A stretch of 11,785 nt of DNA from a virus (lineage: Duplodnaviria > Heunggongvirae > Uroviricota > Caudoviricetes): IMG/VR virus record IMGVR_UViG_2695420889_000011, positions 1 to 11,785 of that record; one strand, given 5' to 3'. The notes under the pieces are model-generated. The model was not told where the DNA came from and made no database searches. It was given only the letters and a program-made list of their open reading frames with translations. This document shows, in pieces, positions 7,046 through 11,785 of this stretch. How positions within the stretch are numbered: position 1 is the stretch's first letter; the number at the start of each line of letters is the position of its first letter. A program made the translations under genes and the position numbers.

Positions 7046-7393
7046 TTACTTATCACATAAATCAAATGCAGCCTTAGTGACATCCCCTAGGCTCTTTTTT
7101 AACCCTGGGGCGGCATCATTATCTAGCCAAAATGGATTATTGTTATCTAACGGTAACGCACCAAATGTTTTACCTTTTATTCGAGCCAAACCTGTAAGTG
7201 CATATAACTTATTATCGTCAAAATTCATCACATAAGGATTACCATCAAGACACTGTAATTGAACCTCATCAGTATTAAATGGCCATACCCCATTGAAACT
7301 CTCACGTTCAATAGTTTTAAAAGGCATTGCGACGGCGGAAAAAGAAAACATAGATAAAAAAGTAACTAATAGTTGAACCTTTTTTACTTTCAT
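7046..7393 (-). CDS. Secreted/periplasmic small protein with signal peptide; possibly DUF2511 (YebY-like)
   Basis: 115-aa ORF with SD GAGGT 6 nt upstream. N-terminal signal peptide MKVKKVQLLVTFLSMFSFSAVA. The mature part has the pattern W-x-FN-x-[DE]EV-x-L-x-C-x-x-GN ... DN-x-x-PG-x-KKSL ... LC with two Cys; the resemblance to YebY is from memory only. Stop is 5 bp before the int start. Confidence 0.55.
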   Translation of the reverse strand: MKVKKVQLLVTFLSMFSFSAVAMPFKTIERESFNGVWPFNTDEVQLQCLDGNPYVMNFDDNKLYALTGLARIKGKTFGALPLDNNNPFWLDNDAAPGLKKSLGDVTKAAFDLCDK

Positions 7394-7422
7394 ATCATTA
7401 CCTCAATTTAGCTCAAGTAAGA

Positions 7423-8073
7423 TTACAAATTAAAAAACGCCCTAGAAATGACACCGCCTACCAAAACCCCTACGCAGATAAAGAATATTATTTCTTTTGG
7501 ATAAAGTCGGATTAATTCTGAAGCACGAAGTCGGACTTCTGGTAAGGTCGAACTCTCTGTGTGGCTTGATGCCGATTGTTGCTCTAACCACGACAATGCA
7601 GACTGTAACTGAGAACGAGTAAGATCGTTTAAACGTCCTGTACCGAAATTGATATGGCAATACCGCAGAAGTTTTTGTCGAAGTCCACAGTCTTCACTGT
7701 TACGTAGTAATAAACTTACAAGAGCCTTACAGGCATCATGATCTTTACATCGCTCAAGCATTGCATGCAGAAAACTCTCCGCTGTTTTATATTGATTTAC
7801 TGTCATATCATCAATACCAGCTACACCAATCTCCGCATGTACTTTTTGCCAAATAATAAACGCTTCAGTATTGCTAGCTTCTGCAATAGCAGCAACCAAG
7901 CTATTCAGCTCCTTACGCTGAGCCTTAAGCAAAGGGCGATCGTCATCATCATTATTCGAAGGGATTGCGATATTGACGGTATGAGAACCATCATATCGCT
8001 CTATCTGAATATTCTTTTCGTGAAAATCACGCCCAGCAACGCGATTGTTTGAACCGTTTGAGTTGACGGCCAT
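7423..8073 (-). CDS. Hypothetical protein (216 aa) with C-terminal transmembrane anchor
   Basis: Strong SD GGGAGGTG just upstream of the ATG, 15 bp after the repressor stop. Single hydrophobic C-terminal helix IIFFICVGVLVGGVISRAFF. The N-terminus shares an NNR[VI]AGRD[FY] motif with the C-terminus of the upstream repressor. Confidence 0.6.
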   Translation of the reverse strand: MAVNSNGSNNRVAGRDFHEKNIQIERYDGSHTVNIAIPSNNDDDDRPLLKAQRKELNSLVAAIAEASNTEAFIIWQKVHAEIGVAGIDDMTVNQYKTAESFLHAMLERCKDHDACKALVSLLLRNSEDCGLRQKLLRYCHINFGTGRLNDLTRSQLQSALSWLEQQSASSHTESSTLPEVRLRASELIRLYPKEIIFFICVGVLVGGVISRAFFNL

Positions 8074-8088
8074 GTCACCTCCCTACTA

Positions 8089-8493
8089 TCACCTACCCTT
8101 AGTTTCGTTATAGTCACGACCAGCGATACGGTTATTACCACCAGAAATATTTAACTCACGTCCTGATAGCTGAGTTTCCTTTTCACTGATCGCACCTTTT
8201 AAAGCCCCAATCACCGCGTTTTTCACATCTAACGAAGCTGCTCGAAAGCGAGTAATCAACTCCTGCTCATCATCGTTATAAGTTTCAGGTGAGTGAATTC
8301 CCAACACAACATACTGAACATCAAGGCCAAAACGAGACAGCGCTGCCAAATACGCAGCATCAGGAAAGCTATCTCCTTTCTCATATCTAAGCTGAGTTAG
8401 CTTTTTGACTCCACCAATGTCGCTCATGGCAACTTGACTAAGTCCCAATCTTTCCCTTTCCTCACGCAACCGCTGACCAATATCATTTTTCAT
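8089..8493 (-). CDS. XRE-family helix-turn-helix transcriptional regulator (CI-like repressor candidate)
   Basis: The N-terminus IGQRLREERERLGLSQVAMSDIGGVKKLTQLRYEKGDSFPDAAYLAALSRFGLDVQYVV is a typical HTH_XRE (Cro/C1-type) domain. First gene of the leftward operon ending in int, facing a divergent promoter region. Confidence 0.7.
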   Translation of the reverse strand: MKNDIGQRLREERERLGLSQVAMSDIGGVKKLTQLRYEKGDSFPDAAYLAALSRFGLDVQYVVLGIHSPETYNDDEQELITRFRAASLDVKNAVIGALKGAISEKETQLSGRELNISGGNNRIAGRDYNETKGR

Positions 8494-8502
8494 ACAAAAA
8501 CC

Positions 8503-8531
8503 TTGACAGGTATCTTTTTTGATACCAAAAT
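8503..8531. promoter_or_regulatory. Divergent promoter region with palindromic operator candidate GGTATC-T6-GATACC
   Basis: TTGACA at 8503-8508; perfect inverted repeat GGTATCTTTTTTGATACC at 8509-8526 occupying the spacer; weak -10-like CAAAAT at 8526-8531 with 17-bp spacing. Lies between the divergently transcribed repressor gene and the rightward operon. Confidence 0.35.
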
Positions 8532-8568
8532 GATTTCACGAGCTATTAGATGATCACAATATACCACT

Positions 8569-8775
8569 ATGAAACAAGTTCTTCACGATACCAGATCACG
8601 CATTCCGCGTAACACCGCCACAGGTCCAAGACTGGCACTTCGGCTGTCCCTCGAGGAGCGAGCCGTCATTGATGAAATGGCAGCTAAAGAACAACGCTCA
8701 TCCTCTAACATGGCGCGCATGATCTTCCTTCGCGGCCTAGAGCTAACCCAGAAAGAACAAAACAAATCTTCCTGA
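8569..8775 (+). CDS. Small DNA-binding protein candidate (ribbon-helix-helix-like), first gene of the rightward operon
   Basis: 68-aa ORF. The segment RLALRLSLEERAVIDEMAAKEQRSSSNMARMIFLRGL fits the beta-strand/helix/helix pattern of RHH regulators. No clear SD. The antisense ORF 8583-8765 looks like low-complexity junk. Confidence 0.4.
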   Translation: MKQVLHDTRSRIPRNTATGPRLALRLSLEERAVIDEMAAKEQRSSSNMARMIFLRGLELTQKEQNKSS

Positions 8776-8791
8776 TCAGGAGGCTAGTGGG

Positions 8792-8995
8792 ATGTCAGGT
8801 ATAACCATCAATATCAATGTGAATGCCCCCTATGTATCCCTGCAGAAATATGCAGAGATAACAGGTATCCCTCTTAATACATGCAAAAAGATGTTGGCTG
8901 ACGGTCGAATTATTATCCGCCCCAAACGCGCCAAAATGGAAAAGCCTGAAGTAAACCTTGTGGCGATGTTAAAAGACGCTTTGGCTAACAGCTAA
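8792..8995 (+). CDS. Small HTH protein, excisionase/AlpA-like regulator candidate
   Basis: 67-aa ORF with strong SD AGGAGG (8778-8783). The segment YVSLQKYAEITGIPLNTCKKMLADGRI is HTH-like, as in Xis/AlpA-type proteins. Confidence 0.5.
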   Translation: MSGITININVNAPYVSLQKYAEITGIPLNTCKKMLADGRIIIRPKRAKMEKPEVNLVAMLKDALANS

Positions 8996-9016
8996 AACAA
9001 TGAACAGAGCACCATC

Positions 9017-9367
9017 ATGAAAAAAAACGCTAATAATCCATACTCCAAATTTCGTAATGGCGTAGAACGCCATGTACACCACGTCGCTACCAGTGCATCA
9101 CGTAGTAACAGTCGCTATAACCTGAACGAAACACACGCAACACCGGATGGCCACGCTGTAAAACAAATCGGCGAGCATACCTGGCTGATTGAGAAAGCTG
9201 GAATCGTGGTCCACAAATGCCCACGCAATCCGTTTACCGGAAACCGCATTTTTGCATTGAGCTGCGGAGACAATCACTTCGGACAGGATTTCACATTATA
9301 CGAAGCACTTCGCACGGTTGATCGTCTGCTTCGCGGGCAAAGTTTTATTAAACAGGCTGATTTATAA
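9017..9367 (+). CDS. Hypothetical protein (116 aa)
   Basis: Intact ORF in the rightward operon; no recognisable motif; weak SD. Confidence 0.45.
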   Translation: MKKNANNPYSKFRNGVERHVHHVATSASRSNSRYNLNETHATPDGHAVKQIGEHTWLIEKAGIVVHKCPRNPFTGNRIFALSCGDNHFGQDFTLYEALRTVDRLLRGQSFIKQADL

Positions 9368-9377
9368 CAGGTGCTTT

Positions 9378-9692
9378 ATGACCAAAGAGCATGCACAAGG
9401 TGTATTTATCCGTTTTATTGATTTTCGCGGTGAACTGTTATTACGCGCATCCGCTATTGATGGAGTGGCTCCGGCGGGTAAAAACGGAGCCGACGAAGCC
9501 ACTTACGTTTATCTGAACGGCACGCGACTGCTTGTGGAACTTCCGTACCAGACCGTACGAGAAATCATTAGTGAAGCTGAAAAGGCACGCCTGGCTAATG
9601 GCGTGAACCCTATATCGAAATTATTTGTATGGATTCAGAAACTGAAATTCAGAAAGCAGATTAAAGGGCGTTGCGATGGGCAAAGAATATAA
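9378..9692 (+). CDS. Hypothetical protein (104 aa); start moved to the internal ATG at 9378
   Basis: The ORF-track start at 9318 would overlap the preceding gene by 50 bp. The in-frame ATG at 9378 has SD AGGTG 6 nt upstream and lies just after the preceding stop (9365-9367). Confidence 0.45.
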   Translation: MTKEHAQGVFIRFIDFRGELLLRASAIDGVAPAGKNGADEATYVYLNGTRLLVELPYQTVREIISEAEKARLANGVNPISKLFVWIQKLKFRKQIKGRCDGQRI

Positions 9693-9918
9693 AACTCTCA
9701 TTAACAAAGCACTTGAGCGTTTTTATTTTCGCTTAAGTGCATCAGGCGCTCATGCTGAACGAGCAGCCCGTGACTCATTGACCAGGGCAATCCGGAGTCT
9801 GTATGACGTGGCTTTTTACGCTGATGATCTGGATGCACTTAACGAACTTTCCGAGCTGATCTGTGCCGCAGAATGCGGGGAACATATTGAACCGTATAAG
9901 CTGGGGAATATTGCATGA
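9676..9918 (+). CDS. Hypothetical protein (80 aa)
   Basis: Intact ORF with AAGGG about 8 nt upstream; overlaps the 9378-9692 gene by 17 bp, consistent with an operon. Confidence 0.45.
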   Translation: MGKEYKTLINKALERFYFRLSASGAHAERAARDSLTRAIRSLYDVAFYADDLDALNELSELICAAECGEHIEPYKLGNIA

Positions 9919-10028
9919 GTATATTTATCTCATGGCTTGTTCTGATTATTTCGGTGGCCTGCGCCATTGGGATTATGCGAATTATTCATTCAGTAAAAAA
10001 GATTGAACGCTTTTTCACTGGTGAATAA
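9915..10028 (+). CDS. Small hydrophobic peptide (37 aa, MSIFISWLVLIISVACAIGIMRIIHSVKKIERFFTGE), single predicted TM helix
   Basis: Hand-translated; not in the ORF track because it is under 60 aa. Its ATG overlaps the stop of the upstream gene (ATGA at 9915-9918), suggesting translational coupling. Confidence 0.3.
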   Translation: MSIFISWLVLIISVACAIGIMRIIHSVKKIERFFTGE

Positions 10029-10121
10029 CGATACAAATAAAGCATCAAATTAAATAAGAAAACGTGAAAACCATCCGTATTAACGGAGGTATTCGCACAC
10101 GCAAATAACGGAGATACAAAA

Positions 10122-10532
10122 ATGCACGCAAAAGAAGAAGGTATCATCAGAGCACTGAAAGAAATTTCAAAGACAGAAAACGAAGTAGCGAAAAAAGCCG
10201 TGGCAAATGCACATATGGACGTCGCAACCCACACACTGATAGTCGCAAGAGTCACGGCAGAAGCAGCCGAAATTATCGCAAAACAGGATGCTGAACTGGC
10301 GGTTCTCAGAACACAACCAGTCACCGGACTGGATTTGTCTAACACCGGACGCCTTATTTACACAATTGGCTCGGAGCTACAGCGATACACCATTATCGCC
10401 GGATTACAGGATAAATACCTGATCACTCCTCACCCCATAAGGGAATCAGAAATTCTGACAAATCTCCGCCTGATAGAACGCTCTCAAGTTGTATTCATTG
10501 ATGACGCGCAATGTGCCGTATTTAACGCATAG
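10122..10532 (+). CDS. Hypothetical protein (136 aa)
   Basis: Intact ORF with SD GGAG about 9 nt upstream; no recognisable motif. Confidence 0.5.
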   Translation: MHAKEEGIIRALKEISKTENEVAKKAVANAHMDVATHTLIVARVTAEAAEIIAKQDAELAVLRTQPVTGLDLSNTGRLIYTIGSELQRYTIIAGLQDKYLITPHPIRESEILTNLRLIERSQVVFIDDAQCAVFNA

Positions 10533-10555
10533 GGTTACTGGACAAAGGGGGCGCA

Positions 10556-10759
10556 ATGGCAATTAAGCATTTTCCCGTCGTTCGCTTTACCTCCAGAGGG
10601 CGCGAATACGAGGTCGACGAACGCCTGATTACCACTATCGACAAACATCGTTCGGAAAAGGATGCACACCACATCTACCTCACTGACGGCACTTACTTCT
10701 GCGCCACCAACGTGGCGCGGGTGAATCTTATCCGACAGGTACAGGAGCCACGCAGATGA
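10556..10759 (+). CDS. Hypothetical protein (67 aa)
   Basis: Intact ORF with SD AAGGGGG upstream; stop overlaps the next start (ATGA at 10756-10759). Confidence 0.5.
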   Translation: MAIKHFPVVRFTSRGREYEVDERLITTIDKHRSEKDAHHIYLTDGTYFCATNVARVNLIRQVQEPRR

Positions 10760-11022
10760 CCATTCTGGACTACATCGCTACTCATCCGGGGTGTAGCGGC
10801 GGAGAGATCGCCGCAGCACTGAATACCCCAACCACAGCCATTAATGCTGAGTTACGCCGACTTTGGCGCGGCGGCTTAGTCATCAGAACAAACCGCAGCA
10901 CAGGTGGTCGCGCTCGCAAAACAGGAGGCCAGGCTTCTTACCACGTAAACCCGATGCTGTTCGGGTGTAGTAATCCACTTACTCACATGTTTAACCAGCT
11001 ACTGAAGGAAGCCAGAGCATGA
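10756..11022 (+). CDS. Winged-helix DNA-binding protein candidate (88 aa)
   Basis: The segment LDYIATHPGCSGGEIAAALNTPTTAINAELRRLWRGGLV resembles a winged-HTH recognition module. SD AGGAG 10 nt upstream. Stop overlaps the next start (ATGA at 11019-11022). Confidence 0.5.
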   Translation: MTILDYIATHPGCSGGEIAAALNTPTTAINAELRRLWRGGLVIRTNRSTGGRARKTGGQASYHVNPMLFGCSNPLTHMFNQLLKEARA

Positions 11023-11318
11023 GCACCATCAACCACCAGAAGCTACGCGAACTGGCATTTGCCCTGCAACGAATGGCAACGCCTCAAAAATTACTGGCAT
11101 TTCGCGCAATGCTCTCGCCGTCTGCTGTGCTGGCACTGCTGGATCAGCTGGAGCACGCCAGAACCACTGCTCCAGCCATTCGCCTCACGCTCCATCATGA
11201 AATCGCTGATTTCTGCGCAACGCTGGGGGCACCTGGCGAACCGGAAACGCCGGAAGCAATGCAGCAAGAGCTGCTGCAACGCATCGATAACGTTTTTGAT
11301 TTTTTTCTGAACCAGTAA
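11019..11318 (+). CDS. Hypothetical protein (99 aa), last gene of the rightward operon
   Basis: Intact ORF translationally coupled to the upstream gene. Chosen over the overlapping alternative-frame ORFs 11059-11310 (+) and 11091-11357 (-) because of the coupling and operon context. Confidence 0.5.
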   Translation: MSTINHQKLRELAFALQRMATPQKLLAFRAMLSPSAVLALLDQLEHARTTAPAIRLTLHHEIADFCATLGAPGEPETPEAMQQELLQRIDNVFDFFLNQ

Positions 11319-11339
11319 GAAACCAGAACATGCACACAC

Positions 11340-11461
11340 AAAAAAACCGCTTGCCATGCCTCAATCGGTCAGGTTACATTTCCGCTGCACCTCATAAAAC
11401 GGGCGCCGGGATTCTCAACCCGATACAGAGCAAAGCGCATAACCGCGCAAGCGGTTTTTTT
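11340..11461 (+). terminator. Terminator-like structured element: 15-bp perfect long-range inverted repeat ending in a GNRA hairpin and T-run
   Basis: AAAAAAACCGCTTGC (11340-11354) is the exact reverse complement of GCAAGCGGTTTTTTT (11447-11461). A local hairpin AACCGC-GCAA-GCGGTT (11441-11456) is followed by a T-run. Located 22 bp after the operon stop. Confidence 0.4.
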
Positions 11462-11473
11462 GTGCGTACTGTA

Positions 11474-11502
11474 TTGCCACGTCTTTTTCGCGTCAGAATT
11501 AT
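11474..11502 (+). promoter_or_regulatory. Candidate sigma-70 promoter for the downstream leader and gene
   Basis: TTGCCA (11474-11479), 17-bp spacer, AATTAT (11497-11502). Sequence-only prediction. Confidence 0.3.
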
Positions 11503-11518
11503 GGCGGGGCGTACGGGG

Positions 11519-11633
11519 CCGACTTCGGTCGGACCGGATTCTTTGCTCTCCGGTGTTGAGAACCCTGTACGTCTCGCCACCCCGAGATTCTCAACTCTGG
11601 ATGGTGAGTTATTTCTATCACCGAGCAAAGAGG
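11519..11633 (+). promoter_or_regulatory. Structured 5' leader / riboregulatory element with alternative pairings that can occlude the SD of the downstream gene
   Basis: UUCG-tetraloop hairpin CCGAC-TTCG-GTCGG (11519-11532). Segment CTTTGCTCT...GTTGAGAACCC (11541-11565) is complementary to GATTCTCAAC (11586-11595) and GAGCAAAG (11623-11630), the latter abutting the SD AGAGG (about 11629-11633). It is also complementary to an upstream copy at 11408-11435. Confidence 0.35.
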
Positions 11634-11640
11634 CCACACC

Positions 11641-11785
11641 ATGGCAGACCGCAAACAGCACCGCGCTATCGCGGAGCGTCGTCACATCCAGACTGAAATC
11701 AACCGCAGACTTTCCCGCGCATCACGCGTCGCGCAAATCATGCACATCAATATGCTGCATGAGCGCAGCCACGCACTATCAAACA
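11641..11785 (+). CDS. Hypothetical protein, 5' part only (runs off the window end)
   Basis: ATG at 11641 with SD GAGG 7 nt upstream. Open frame MADRKQHRAIAERRHIQTEINRRLSRASRVAQIMHINMLHERSHALSN... continues to the window edge. Hand-translated; absent from the ORF track because of length. Confidence 0.45.
   Translation, partial: MADRKQHRAIAERRHIQTEINRRLSRASRVAQIMHINMLHERSHALSN

Follow-up and report, generated by a model that had tools for sequence, protein, structure and literature searches.

We analyzed a stretch of 11,785 nucleotides of viral DNA (IMG/VR record IMGVR_UViG_2695420889_000011, Caudoviricetes; hereafter the window), in which positions 6039-11785 constitute the left end of a P2-like prophage with its lysogeny and early genes. 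Two adjacent collinear genes of this region, encoding an XRE-family protein with a helix-turn-helix (HTH) domain and a Flk_N-type membrane protein (hereafter the partner), share a short motif that stands at the C-terminus of the former and at the N-terminus of the latter. The motif is terminal and predicted to be disordered in both proteins, its similarity is under selection at the protein level, its two copies always occur as a pair and switch between sequence flavours in concert, and it is portable to other proteins. The feature is real, statistically solid, and evolutionarily conserved; sequence comparisons suggest that it is best described as a co-evolving terminal docking motif, whose mechanism we infer below. 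Full-text literature searches for membrane-anchored antirepressors, for Flk in prophages, and for amyloid motifs on repressors returned nothing specific and no description of the module.

The shared terminal motif and its pairing across prophages

The original prediction, made from the letters of the window alone, had related the C-terminal end of the repressor to residues 3-19 of the membrane protein, and its coordinates proved right. The repressor segment LNISGGNNRIAGRDYNE and the partner segment VNSNGSNNRVAGRDFHE are identical at 10 of 17 residues and at 30 of 51 nucleotides (59%), with identical codons at 4 of the 10 identical residues, in line with the predicted divergence at many synonymous positions. 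Smith-Waterman alignment of the last 32 residues of the repressor with the first 32 residues of the partner gave a score of 62, which none of 20,000 residue shuffles reached (20.3 ± 4.3, maximum 48), and the motif segment was the top local alignment between the two full-length proteins. At the profile level, hhalign matched 29 repressor tails to 23 partner N-termini over 20 columns with a probability of 98.6% (E 1.3e-15). Among 12 other pairs, 11 showed 53-67% DNA identity and identical codons at about half or fewer of the identical residues, the exception being an 8-residue Gilliamella segment with 88% DNA identity and 5 of 6 codons identical. Because DNA identity is low and the codons for identical residues differ, the similarity is kept at the protein level, as had been predicted, and a recent DNA duplication or gene conversion was rejected.

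A degenerate DNA pattern for N-R-[VI]-A-G-R-D-[FY]-x-E, expected about once per 7e10 positions, matched at least 120 viral contig stretches, compared to approximately 1-2 matches expected by chance. On these contigs, 157 of the 158 pattern matches were terminal or cut by the end of the locus: 67 lay at the C-terminus of an open reading frame (ORF), 66 at the N-terminus of an ORF of at least 130 residues, 14 at the N-terminus of a second partner family described below, and 10 were cut. Only one match was internal to an unrelated protein. The motif is thus not a common low-complexity string, and a chance origin was rejected on the shuffles, the profile match, and the rarity and terminal placement of the DNA pattern.

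The identification of the upstream protein as an XRE-type repressor is corroborated by its HTH matches in Pfam and by its location. Gene order together with the Pfam and PHROG assignments place this 134-residue protein in the immunity-repressor position, near the integrase end of the P2-like prophage and divergent from an Arc-like and a Cox-like gene; by this position and its HTH domain, it is likely the P2-like immunity repressor. The HTH domain (residues 1-64), similar to P22 C2 and ICEBs1 ImmR in PDB sequence searches, is followed by two helices (residues 74-85 and 88-110) and a disordered tail (residues 111-134). In the AlphaFold2 model, the predicted local distance difference test (pLDDT) score exceeds 90 in the HTH domain and falls below 50 over residues 109-134. 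No self-cleaving peptidase domain was detected by Pfam. Homologues across Enterobacterales carry the tail consensus INVSGxGNRVAGRDYNExKK at their extreme C-terminus.

The repressor and partner genes are probably co-transcribed, since the spacer between them is 15 nucleotides long and contains a ribosome-binding site, and no promoter- or terminator-like signal was detected in this gap. In the window, both ORFs share the same frame and are separated by the stops TGA TAG TAG and the triplets GGA GGT GAC. Spacers at other loci measure -4, 0, 2, 3, 8, 9, 11, 13, 15, 18, and ~270 nucleotides, so the frame relation of the two ORFs is not conserved. A read-through or frameshift fusion of the two ORFs was rejected on the basis of the three intervening stops and the variable spacer length.

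The downstream product, rightly called a membrane protein in the original prediction, comprises the N-terminal motif, the Flk_N helical domain, a variable linker, and a predicted C-terminal transmembrane helix. Because this helix is followed by one residue and an N-terminal signal sequence is absent, the partner is predicted to be tail-anchored with the remainder of the protein in the cytoplasm. The hydrophobic C-terminus is kept across the partner family. Residues G7, N10, R11, D16, and E19 of the partner motif are invariant among 28 family members, and the N-terminal motif is kept in 120 of 120 partner homologues among the matches listed. The AlphaFold2 model has low confidence for residues 1-40 (pLDDT 52-57). 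MAFFT places the single motif of the partners from Mu-like prophages on residues 20-38 of the P2-type partner, a second strand-like stretch that may be a pseudo-repeat of the motif; the monomer model gave no confident structure for this stretch. Docking of the N-terminal motif onto the Flk_N domain in cis was considered and dropped, as the monomer model contained nothing confident of this kind.

The partner matched the NCBIfam equivalog profile for Flk (NF007987) with an E-value of 8.6e-16 and 58.1 bits, compared to a cutoff of 353, and the match covered profile positions 20-149 of 339 only, in the N-terminal part of Flk; the score thus falls far short of the family threshold. Fold searches revealed weak similarity of a ~60-residue helical bundle to NinB, the Red-beta C-terminal domain, and ORF6C/Bro-type phage regulators. 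The Flk_N domain looks like a protein-protein interaction module, and we draw nothing more from these searches. One Klebsiella variant of the partner was recorded on 754 contigs, and the partner is also present in Gilliamella.

The pair was found in all 112 loci examined, namely 89 P2-like loci (9 genomic and 80 from viral contigs), 22 Mu-like loci, and one locus of Salmonella salamae that carries an integrase. In each locus, an XRE ORF whose C-terminal end bears the motif lies just 5' of, and in the same orientation as, a partner bearing it at the N-terminal end. Spacers range from -4 to 18 nucleotides in nearly all of the loci, with ~270 nucleotides in four (L117-L120) and 136 nucleotides in L104. 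The P2-like loci contain 42 distinct combinations of tail and N-terminus with spacers of 8-18 nucleotides, and their partners are more conserved (58-68% identity) than their repressors (35-53%). More distant repressor homologues occur in Mu-like transposable prophages with a Flk_N-type membrane protein directly downstream; these loci are flanked by Ner-like, IclR-type HTH, DUF3102, transposase, and MuB-like genes to one side, with genes for holin and transglycosylase at the opposite flank. Downstream of P0224, a homologous E. coli repressor without the tail, there is no Flk_N gene. Among deposited phage genomes, the E. coli type was found only in Escherichia phage 520873, split into three pieces and without annotation, and none carries the Pseudomonas Mu-like partner; the Pectobacterium partner had only a weak partial match to the same Escherichia phage (36% identity over 60% of the query).

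At least five sequence flavours of the motif can be distinguished, and every repressor tail agrees with the partner beside it. Tail and partner read NRIAGRDYNE and NRVAGRDFHE in E. coli, FNGDISGQFAGNQIINN and FNGTAQGQFSSRDIINI in Pectobacterium, GEGQIAGGNIY and AEQIAGRDIYN in Gilliamella, QQFNGPVGTVTSGDVVN and QQFHDRVHQVAAGDIKN in Pseudomonas aeruginosa, QIIHGNNHGLVVDA and QHICGDNLGNVVNA in Orbaceae, and QVFHQAPIGDIFGRDLV and QEFSGPVGDVAGRDII at locus L106. For five flavour representatives, the cognate pairing was the sole best of 120 permutations (score of 215 compared to at most 136 for any derangement), and each row and column of the score matrix had its maximum on the diagonal. Two flavours occur in Pseudomonas Mu-like prophages and at least two in Enterobacterales.

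Flavour does not track the phylogeny of the remainder of either protein. In the Pseudomonas-group prophages L017 and L018, the Flk_N domains are near those of L015 and L020 (normalised score of 42-55) and far from that of E. coli (16-17). Their N-terminal motifs are near the E. coli motif (40-41), as are their repressor tails (38-42), and both are far from those of L015 and L020 (7-12). Likewise, the domains of Gilliamella and Orbaceae are alike (56) although their motifs differ (18 and 11), and in both lineages the motif agrees with that of the cognate protein. These comparisons suggest that the two copies were switched or retained in concert at least twice, independently of the attached domains, and such concerted switching argues that the match itself is under selection.

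The motif is also attached to a second partner family, a protein of 111-128 residues with an N-terminal NRVAGRDY motif, a CPxCE...CxHC zinc ribbon, and two predicted transmembrane helices. This family, found at loci L124, L151, L163, L188, L191, L198, L201, L207, L209, L211, and L226, always lies directly 3' of an XRE repressor ending in VSGxGNRVAGRDYNETKE and occupies the same position in the same Mu-like backbone as the Flk_N partner, to which it is unrelated. The N-terminal motif and a membrane anchor are common to both families. In addition, two single-chain fusions (P0404, encoded at positions 838-1626 of locus L107, and P0422) combine an XRE HTH domain, a strand-like linker rich in Gly, Asn, and Val, and a Flk_N-like domain, and have no transmembrane helix. 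The P0404 gene occupies the repressor position, in divergent orientation to a Ner-like HTH_35 gene.

Several loci depart from the common arrangement. At positions 767-2801 of L104 (Salmonella enterica subsp. salamae), a single Flk_N gene is preceded by three XRE paralogues in tandem, two of them with a complete tail motif and the third with a degenerate one, ARNISDTGNNENK. The 136-nucleotide gap before the Flk_N gene contains a motif relic, ..AVGRDYHVK, in one frame. In L010, from the endosymbiont Candidatus Symbiopectobacterium, both motif copies are degraded at the core (NRVAGNNFHE and NRVAVRDFNE, at approximately 4900-5100), and the partner and integrase genes also appear interrupted. The E. 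coli 186/P2-like prophage at L102 (3001-4132) has a tail-less homologous repressor with no Flk_N gene next to it, followed by a 117-residue CxxC...CxxC protein and a 140-residue coiled-coil protein with a C-terminal transmembrane helix; by sequence, this seems to be another arrangement of a repressor with a tail-anchored protein, here without the shared motif. The partners P0389, P0396, P0397 (L106, 3001-3858), P0407, and P0410 extend beyond the transmembrane helix into a Cys-containing periplasmic segment (..SVCEF..K.Y.VGS..), and a long coiled coil separates their Flk_N part from the membrane. These variants look like bitopic sensors. The matching repressor tail is encoded upstream of the extended partner of L106.

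Proposed coupling of the repressor to the membrane and its rival explanations

We propose that the motif is a co-evolving homotypic docking element that, through strand-type pairing, couples the repressor to a membrane-anchored regulatory partner, and we give this reading about an even chance. The motif, short and rich in Gly, Asn, Val, and Ile, would lack order in each protein by itself. The repressor would pair through its disordered C-terminal tail with the cytoplasmic N-terminus of the membrane partner made from the same operon, the two copies binding each other. The partner would act as a membrane-tethered regulatory subunit of the lysogeny switch, regulating the repressor rather than the reverse: by capturing or assembling the repressor at the inner membrane face, it would set the amount of active repressor. 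A repressor without a self-cleaving peptidase domain would thus gain a control route independent of RecA-stimulated self-cleavage.

The original prediction had proposed that the motif couples repressor stability or activity to the membrane protein, possibly as a degron or protease-recognition tag. The general link is strongly supported by the co-occurrence in all 112 loci, the covariation of flavours, the natural fusions, and the tail-less repressor that lacks a partner; the degron or protease-tag suggestion found no support. The proposed contact is topologically possible, as a tail-anchored partner has a cytoplasmic N-terminus, and both copies are predicted to lie on the same, cytoplasmic side of the membrane. 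Both motifs lie in low-confidence terminal extensions beside well-folded domains, as expected of elements that fold on binding. The HTH-Flk_N fusions in the repressor position favor a partner that sequesters or assembles the repressor.

Several observations weigh against the docking proposal or parts of it. The AlphaFold2 monomer models contain no structure for either motif, and a core as charged as that of the motif (R, R, D, E) is atypical of simple strand-zipper interfaces. Within the main flavour, fine position-by-position covariation did not reach significance (p = 0.12); because the covariation is confined to comparisons of deep flavours, it reflects few independent events. The fusions without an anchor indicate that membrane attachment is not obligatory for the action of Flk_N on the repressor. 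Finally, the direction of control could be the reverse, because it would be unusual for a repressor to be co-transcribed with its own sink.

Such a reversed direction is the essence of an antitoxin-like explanation, which we consider somewhat unlikely. Here the partner would be a self-assembling membrane effector (for exclusion, abortive infection, or a lysis-related function) that is capped by the look-alike tail of the repressor, held inactive while the prophage is repressed, and released by loss or titration of the repressor. The pair does resemble a type II toxin-antitoxin operon, in which a DNA-binding protein with a disordered C-terminal tail has its target encoded directly downstream; both partner families are small membrane proteins, Mu-like prophages place the pair just upstream of the holin and transglycosylase genes, and the higher conservation of the partner is what a conserved host target would produce. 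However, the products of the pair matched no PADLOC defence model or known toxin family, and the anchor-less HTH-Flk_N fusions in the repressor position suit a regulatory domain better than a toxin. The truncated or frameshifted partner genes that occur beside the repressor gene in E. coli are uninformative on toxicity. Templating in the manner of amyloid signalling, which we judge quite unlikely, would make the motif a beta-arch or beta-solenoid element like the BASS motifs of the Bell/NLR and Bab/Agp pairs, so that clustered partner N-termini nucleate a cross-beta assembly and convert the repressor tails in a switch-like, self-propagating inactivation (or activation). The genomic hallmarks are those by which BASS motifs were discovered (adjacent collinear genes, a short spacer or overlap, and a C-terminal motif matched by an N-terminal one), and in both cases the motif falls into several families, occurs in 'all-in-one' fusions, and is joined to at least two partner domains. 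BASS motifs are rich in N, G, Q, V, and I and poor in K, P, and L. The composition bias is also the same here, with enrichment of N (2.5- to 2.9-fold), G (1.4- to 2.0-fold), and V and I (1.1- to 1.3-fold) and depletion of K (0.6-fold), P (0.2- to 0.3-fold), and L (0.14- to 0.33-fold), and the possible pseudo-repeat after the motif of the P2-type partner would fit as well. The present motif is, however, shorter (~17-20 residues compared to ~25) with a charged core, GRD[FY]xE; neither partner is an NLR/STAND sensor or a Bell/HeLo-type executioner, since Pfam and PADLOC gave no match to sensor domains or to cell-death effectors such as Bell, HeLo, TIR, or CHAT; and the monomer models are without beta structure at either motif.

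A shared degron or host-factor tag, by which one host machine (e.g., ClpXP, Lon, FtsH, or a chaperone) reads both termini and the membrane protein competes with the repressor for degradation or delivers it there, appears very unlikely. Both copies are strictly terminal, like protease tags, and the repressor tails end in basic residues (KK, KGR, KKNK, or RRRKTK), as do ClpX-recognised C-termini such as that of MuA; lambda CII and CIII provide a precedent for competition at membrane-bound FtsH. Yet the tail is found only alongside a partner that bears the motif, and the tag of a conserved host machine should not diversify into pair-specific flavours, including two in Pseudomonas. That the motif is a functionless evolutionary relic, either the scar of a fission of an HTH-motif-Flk_N protein or a recombination linker between modules, is highly improbable. 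The fused forms and the degraded motif in the L104 intergenic gap beside three tandem paralogues are what such a scar could leave behind. Nevertheless, both copies keep their invariant residues over hundreds of divergent sequences while synonymous sites have diverged, they degenerate together in the endosymbiont locus L010, and the same motif was recruited to an unrelated partner; this conservation pattern brings a neutral relic close to exclusion.

A great many prophages are controlled by short XRE repressors that have no self-cleaving domain, and the module is common, being found in two unrelated types of temperate phage, P2-like and Mu-like. Should the motif serve in docking, it would physically connect the lysis-lysogeny switch to the inner membrane in a direct way, and its flavours would constitute a specificity code legible from sequence and open to experimental swapping. 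For the poorly understood Flk_N domain, the module provides a second, testable context. Should the amyloid-like explanation be true, prophage induction or immunity would follow a prion-like, all-or-none route that responds to membrane events and needs no repressor cleavage.

Genomic context of the pair

The features of the repressor-partner region and its neighbours are collected in Table 1. Within the window, the 2-kb region at 7000-9000 is 100% identical to E. coli O145 chromosomes and was found in 524 of 5,426 complete E. coli genomes. The Cox-like gene is followed on its 3' side by early genes, a replication endonuclease, and P2-type head genes according to the record annotation; the same record also contains an integrase, a portal, a terminase, and a P2-family capsid, and Pfam and PHROGs were consistent with its gene assignments. 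Between 8503 and 8572, the sequence ATACCA(A/C)(A/T)ATGA occurs twice, 39 nucleotides apart, as ATACCAAAATGA and ATACCACTATGA, and a 19-nucleotide imperfect inverted repeat spans the repressor start. These repeats in the promoter region are candidate operators of the lysogeny switch.

Table 1. Coordinates of the repressor, the partner, and neighbouring features in the window
Feature	Position	Strand	Basis or remark
Integrase	6039-7040	-	record annotation
DUF2511 protein	7046-7393	-	record annotation
Tail-anchored partner, 216 residues	7423..8073	-	Pfam PF27202 (Flk_N); phrog_5825, E 4e-103; AlphaFold2
C-terminal transmembrane anchor, partner residues 192-215	7429..7500	-	predicted helix, pLDDT 94-97
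Flk_N helical domain, partner residues 45-173	7555..7941	-	very confident in AlphaFold2
Second strand-like stretch KNIQIERYDGSHTVNIAIP, partner residues 20-38	7960..8016	-	kept in all P2-type members
Partner N-terminal motif VNSNGSNNRVAGRDFHE, residues 3-19	8017..8067	-	
Intergenic spacer TAGTAGGGAGGTGAC, 15 nucleotides	8074..8088	-	GGAGG ribosome-binding site
Putative XRE-family HTH immunity repressor, 134 residues	8089..8493	-	Pfam HTH_31/HTH_19/HTH_3; PHROG transcriptional regulator/repressor families
Repressor tail motif LNISGGNNRIAGRDYNE, residues 114-130	8104..8154	-	followed by basic end TKGR
Promoter-like site (TTGACA, 17 nucleotides, CAAAAT)	8503-8531	+	faces Arc-like gene
Arc-like gene	8569-8775	+	phrog_3431; opposite strand to repressor
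Cox-like gene	8792-8995	+	phrog_575; opposite strand to repressor

The part of the window outside the prophage has a different content. Positions 1871-4426 (+), with 1183-1821 (+) alongside, encode an 851-residue protein that is labelled a DNA-directed DNA polymerase in RefSeq, has no Pfam match, and possesses the KTRG and TTD (VTTDGF) motifs. We take these two motifs to be hallmarks of the primer-independent PolB of pipolins. The KTRG motif is treated in PMC5695915. The polymerase neighbourhood in the record contains a type I restriction-modification system, an IS3 element, and recombinase fragments, and fits a pipolin-type defence island adjoining the prophage. Other mobile elements have left remnants between this island and the prophage, namely the 3' end of an IS3-family transposase (1-207), a 306-residue ORF with a Phage_integrase domain (65-985, + strand; E 3e-22), and a truncated integrase retaining the Arm DNA-binding domain alone (4266-4844, - strand). 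No tRNA gene was found within the window.

Comparison with known systems

The closest parallels in logic are found among repressors antagonized through a shared segment. In the SinR/SinI (and SlrR/SlrA) systems of Bacillus subtilis, as in the present pair, the C-terminal segment of an XRE repressor is homologous to a segment of the protein encoded by the adjacent gene, so that the partner copies the tail of the repressor. In SinR/SinI, the partner uses the shared segment to bind the repressor as a heteromer, which displaces repressor oligomers from DNA and so antagonises them. The Bacillus segment is, in contrast, a helical multimerisation hook and SinI is small and soluble, whereas the segment described here is Gly/Asn-rich and predicted to be disordered or non-helical, and its partner is a 216-residue membrane protein. 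Moreover, the present pair resides in prophage immunity regions, and no sequence relationship to SinR/SinI was detected.

Accessory genes next to a repressor are familiar from the lambda cI-rexA-rexB operon, in which the lysogen transcribes accessory genes, one of them for a membrane protein, together with the repressor gene; RexA was reported to modulate the CI/Cro switch. To our knowledge, CI and the Rex proteins share no motif. The present pair has no homology to them, and CI is inactivated by self-cleavage, whereas the 134-residue repressor lacks a peptidase domain. Type II toxin-antitoxin systems with HTH antitoxins of the HigA, MqsA, and HipB types resemble the pair in their two-gene operon, upstream DNA-binding protein, disordered C-terminal tail, and short spacer. 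They differ in that the downstream product matches no toxin family here and the upstream protein is, by position, a prophage immunity repressor; we know of no antitoxin whose tail resembles the terminus of its own partner.

Flk (Fluke/RflH) is a tail-anchored cytoplasmic inhibitor of the flagellar secretion switch (PMC13344023). Like the partner, it is a cytoplasm-facing inner-membrane protein with the same helical Flk_N domain and a C-terminal anchor. In contrast, the Flk protein of E. coli contains two Flk_N repeats, its Pro/Gly-rich N-terminus is devoid of the motif, and flk in E. coli K-12 has no adjacent XRE gene. Unlike the flagellar context of Flk, the phage partner is abundant in Klebsiella, which is non-flagellate, and is also present in Gilliamella.

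The adjacent-gene organization itself is best matched by the BASS motifs of Bell/NLR pairs, which are terminal motif pairs of neighbouring genes (preprint 10.1101/2020.01.06.895854), and by the Bab/Agp abortive-infection pair of E. coli prophage hotspots (preprint 10.1101/2024.11.07.622273). The BASS pairs share with the present module the collinear adjacent genes, tiny spacer, terminal motifs, pair-matched families, fused forms, and composition bias, and Bab/Agp is likewise located in E. coli prophages. They combine a pore-forming Bell protein with an NLR or TPR-PIN sensor, whereas here an HTH repressor is combined with a Flk_N or zinc-ribbon membrane protein through a motif that is shorter and more charged. 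We conclude that the module is a variant of both the shared-segment repressor antagonists and the adjacent-gene terminal motif pairs, and that the rule by which matching terminal motifs in adjacent genes point to interacting proteins may extend beyond immune NLR systems.

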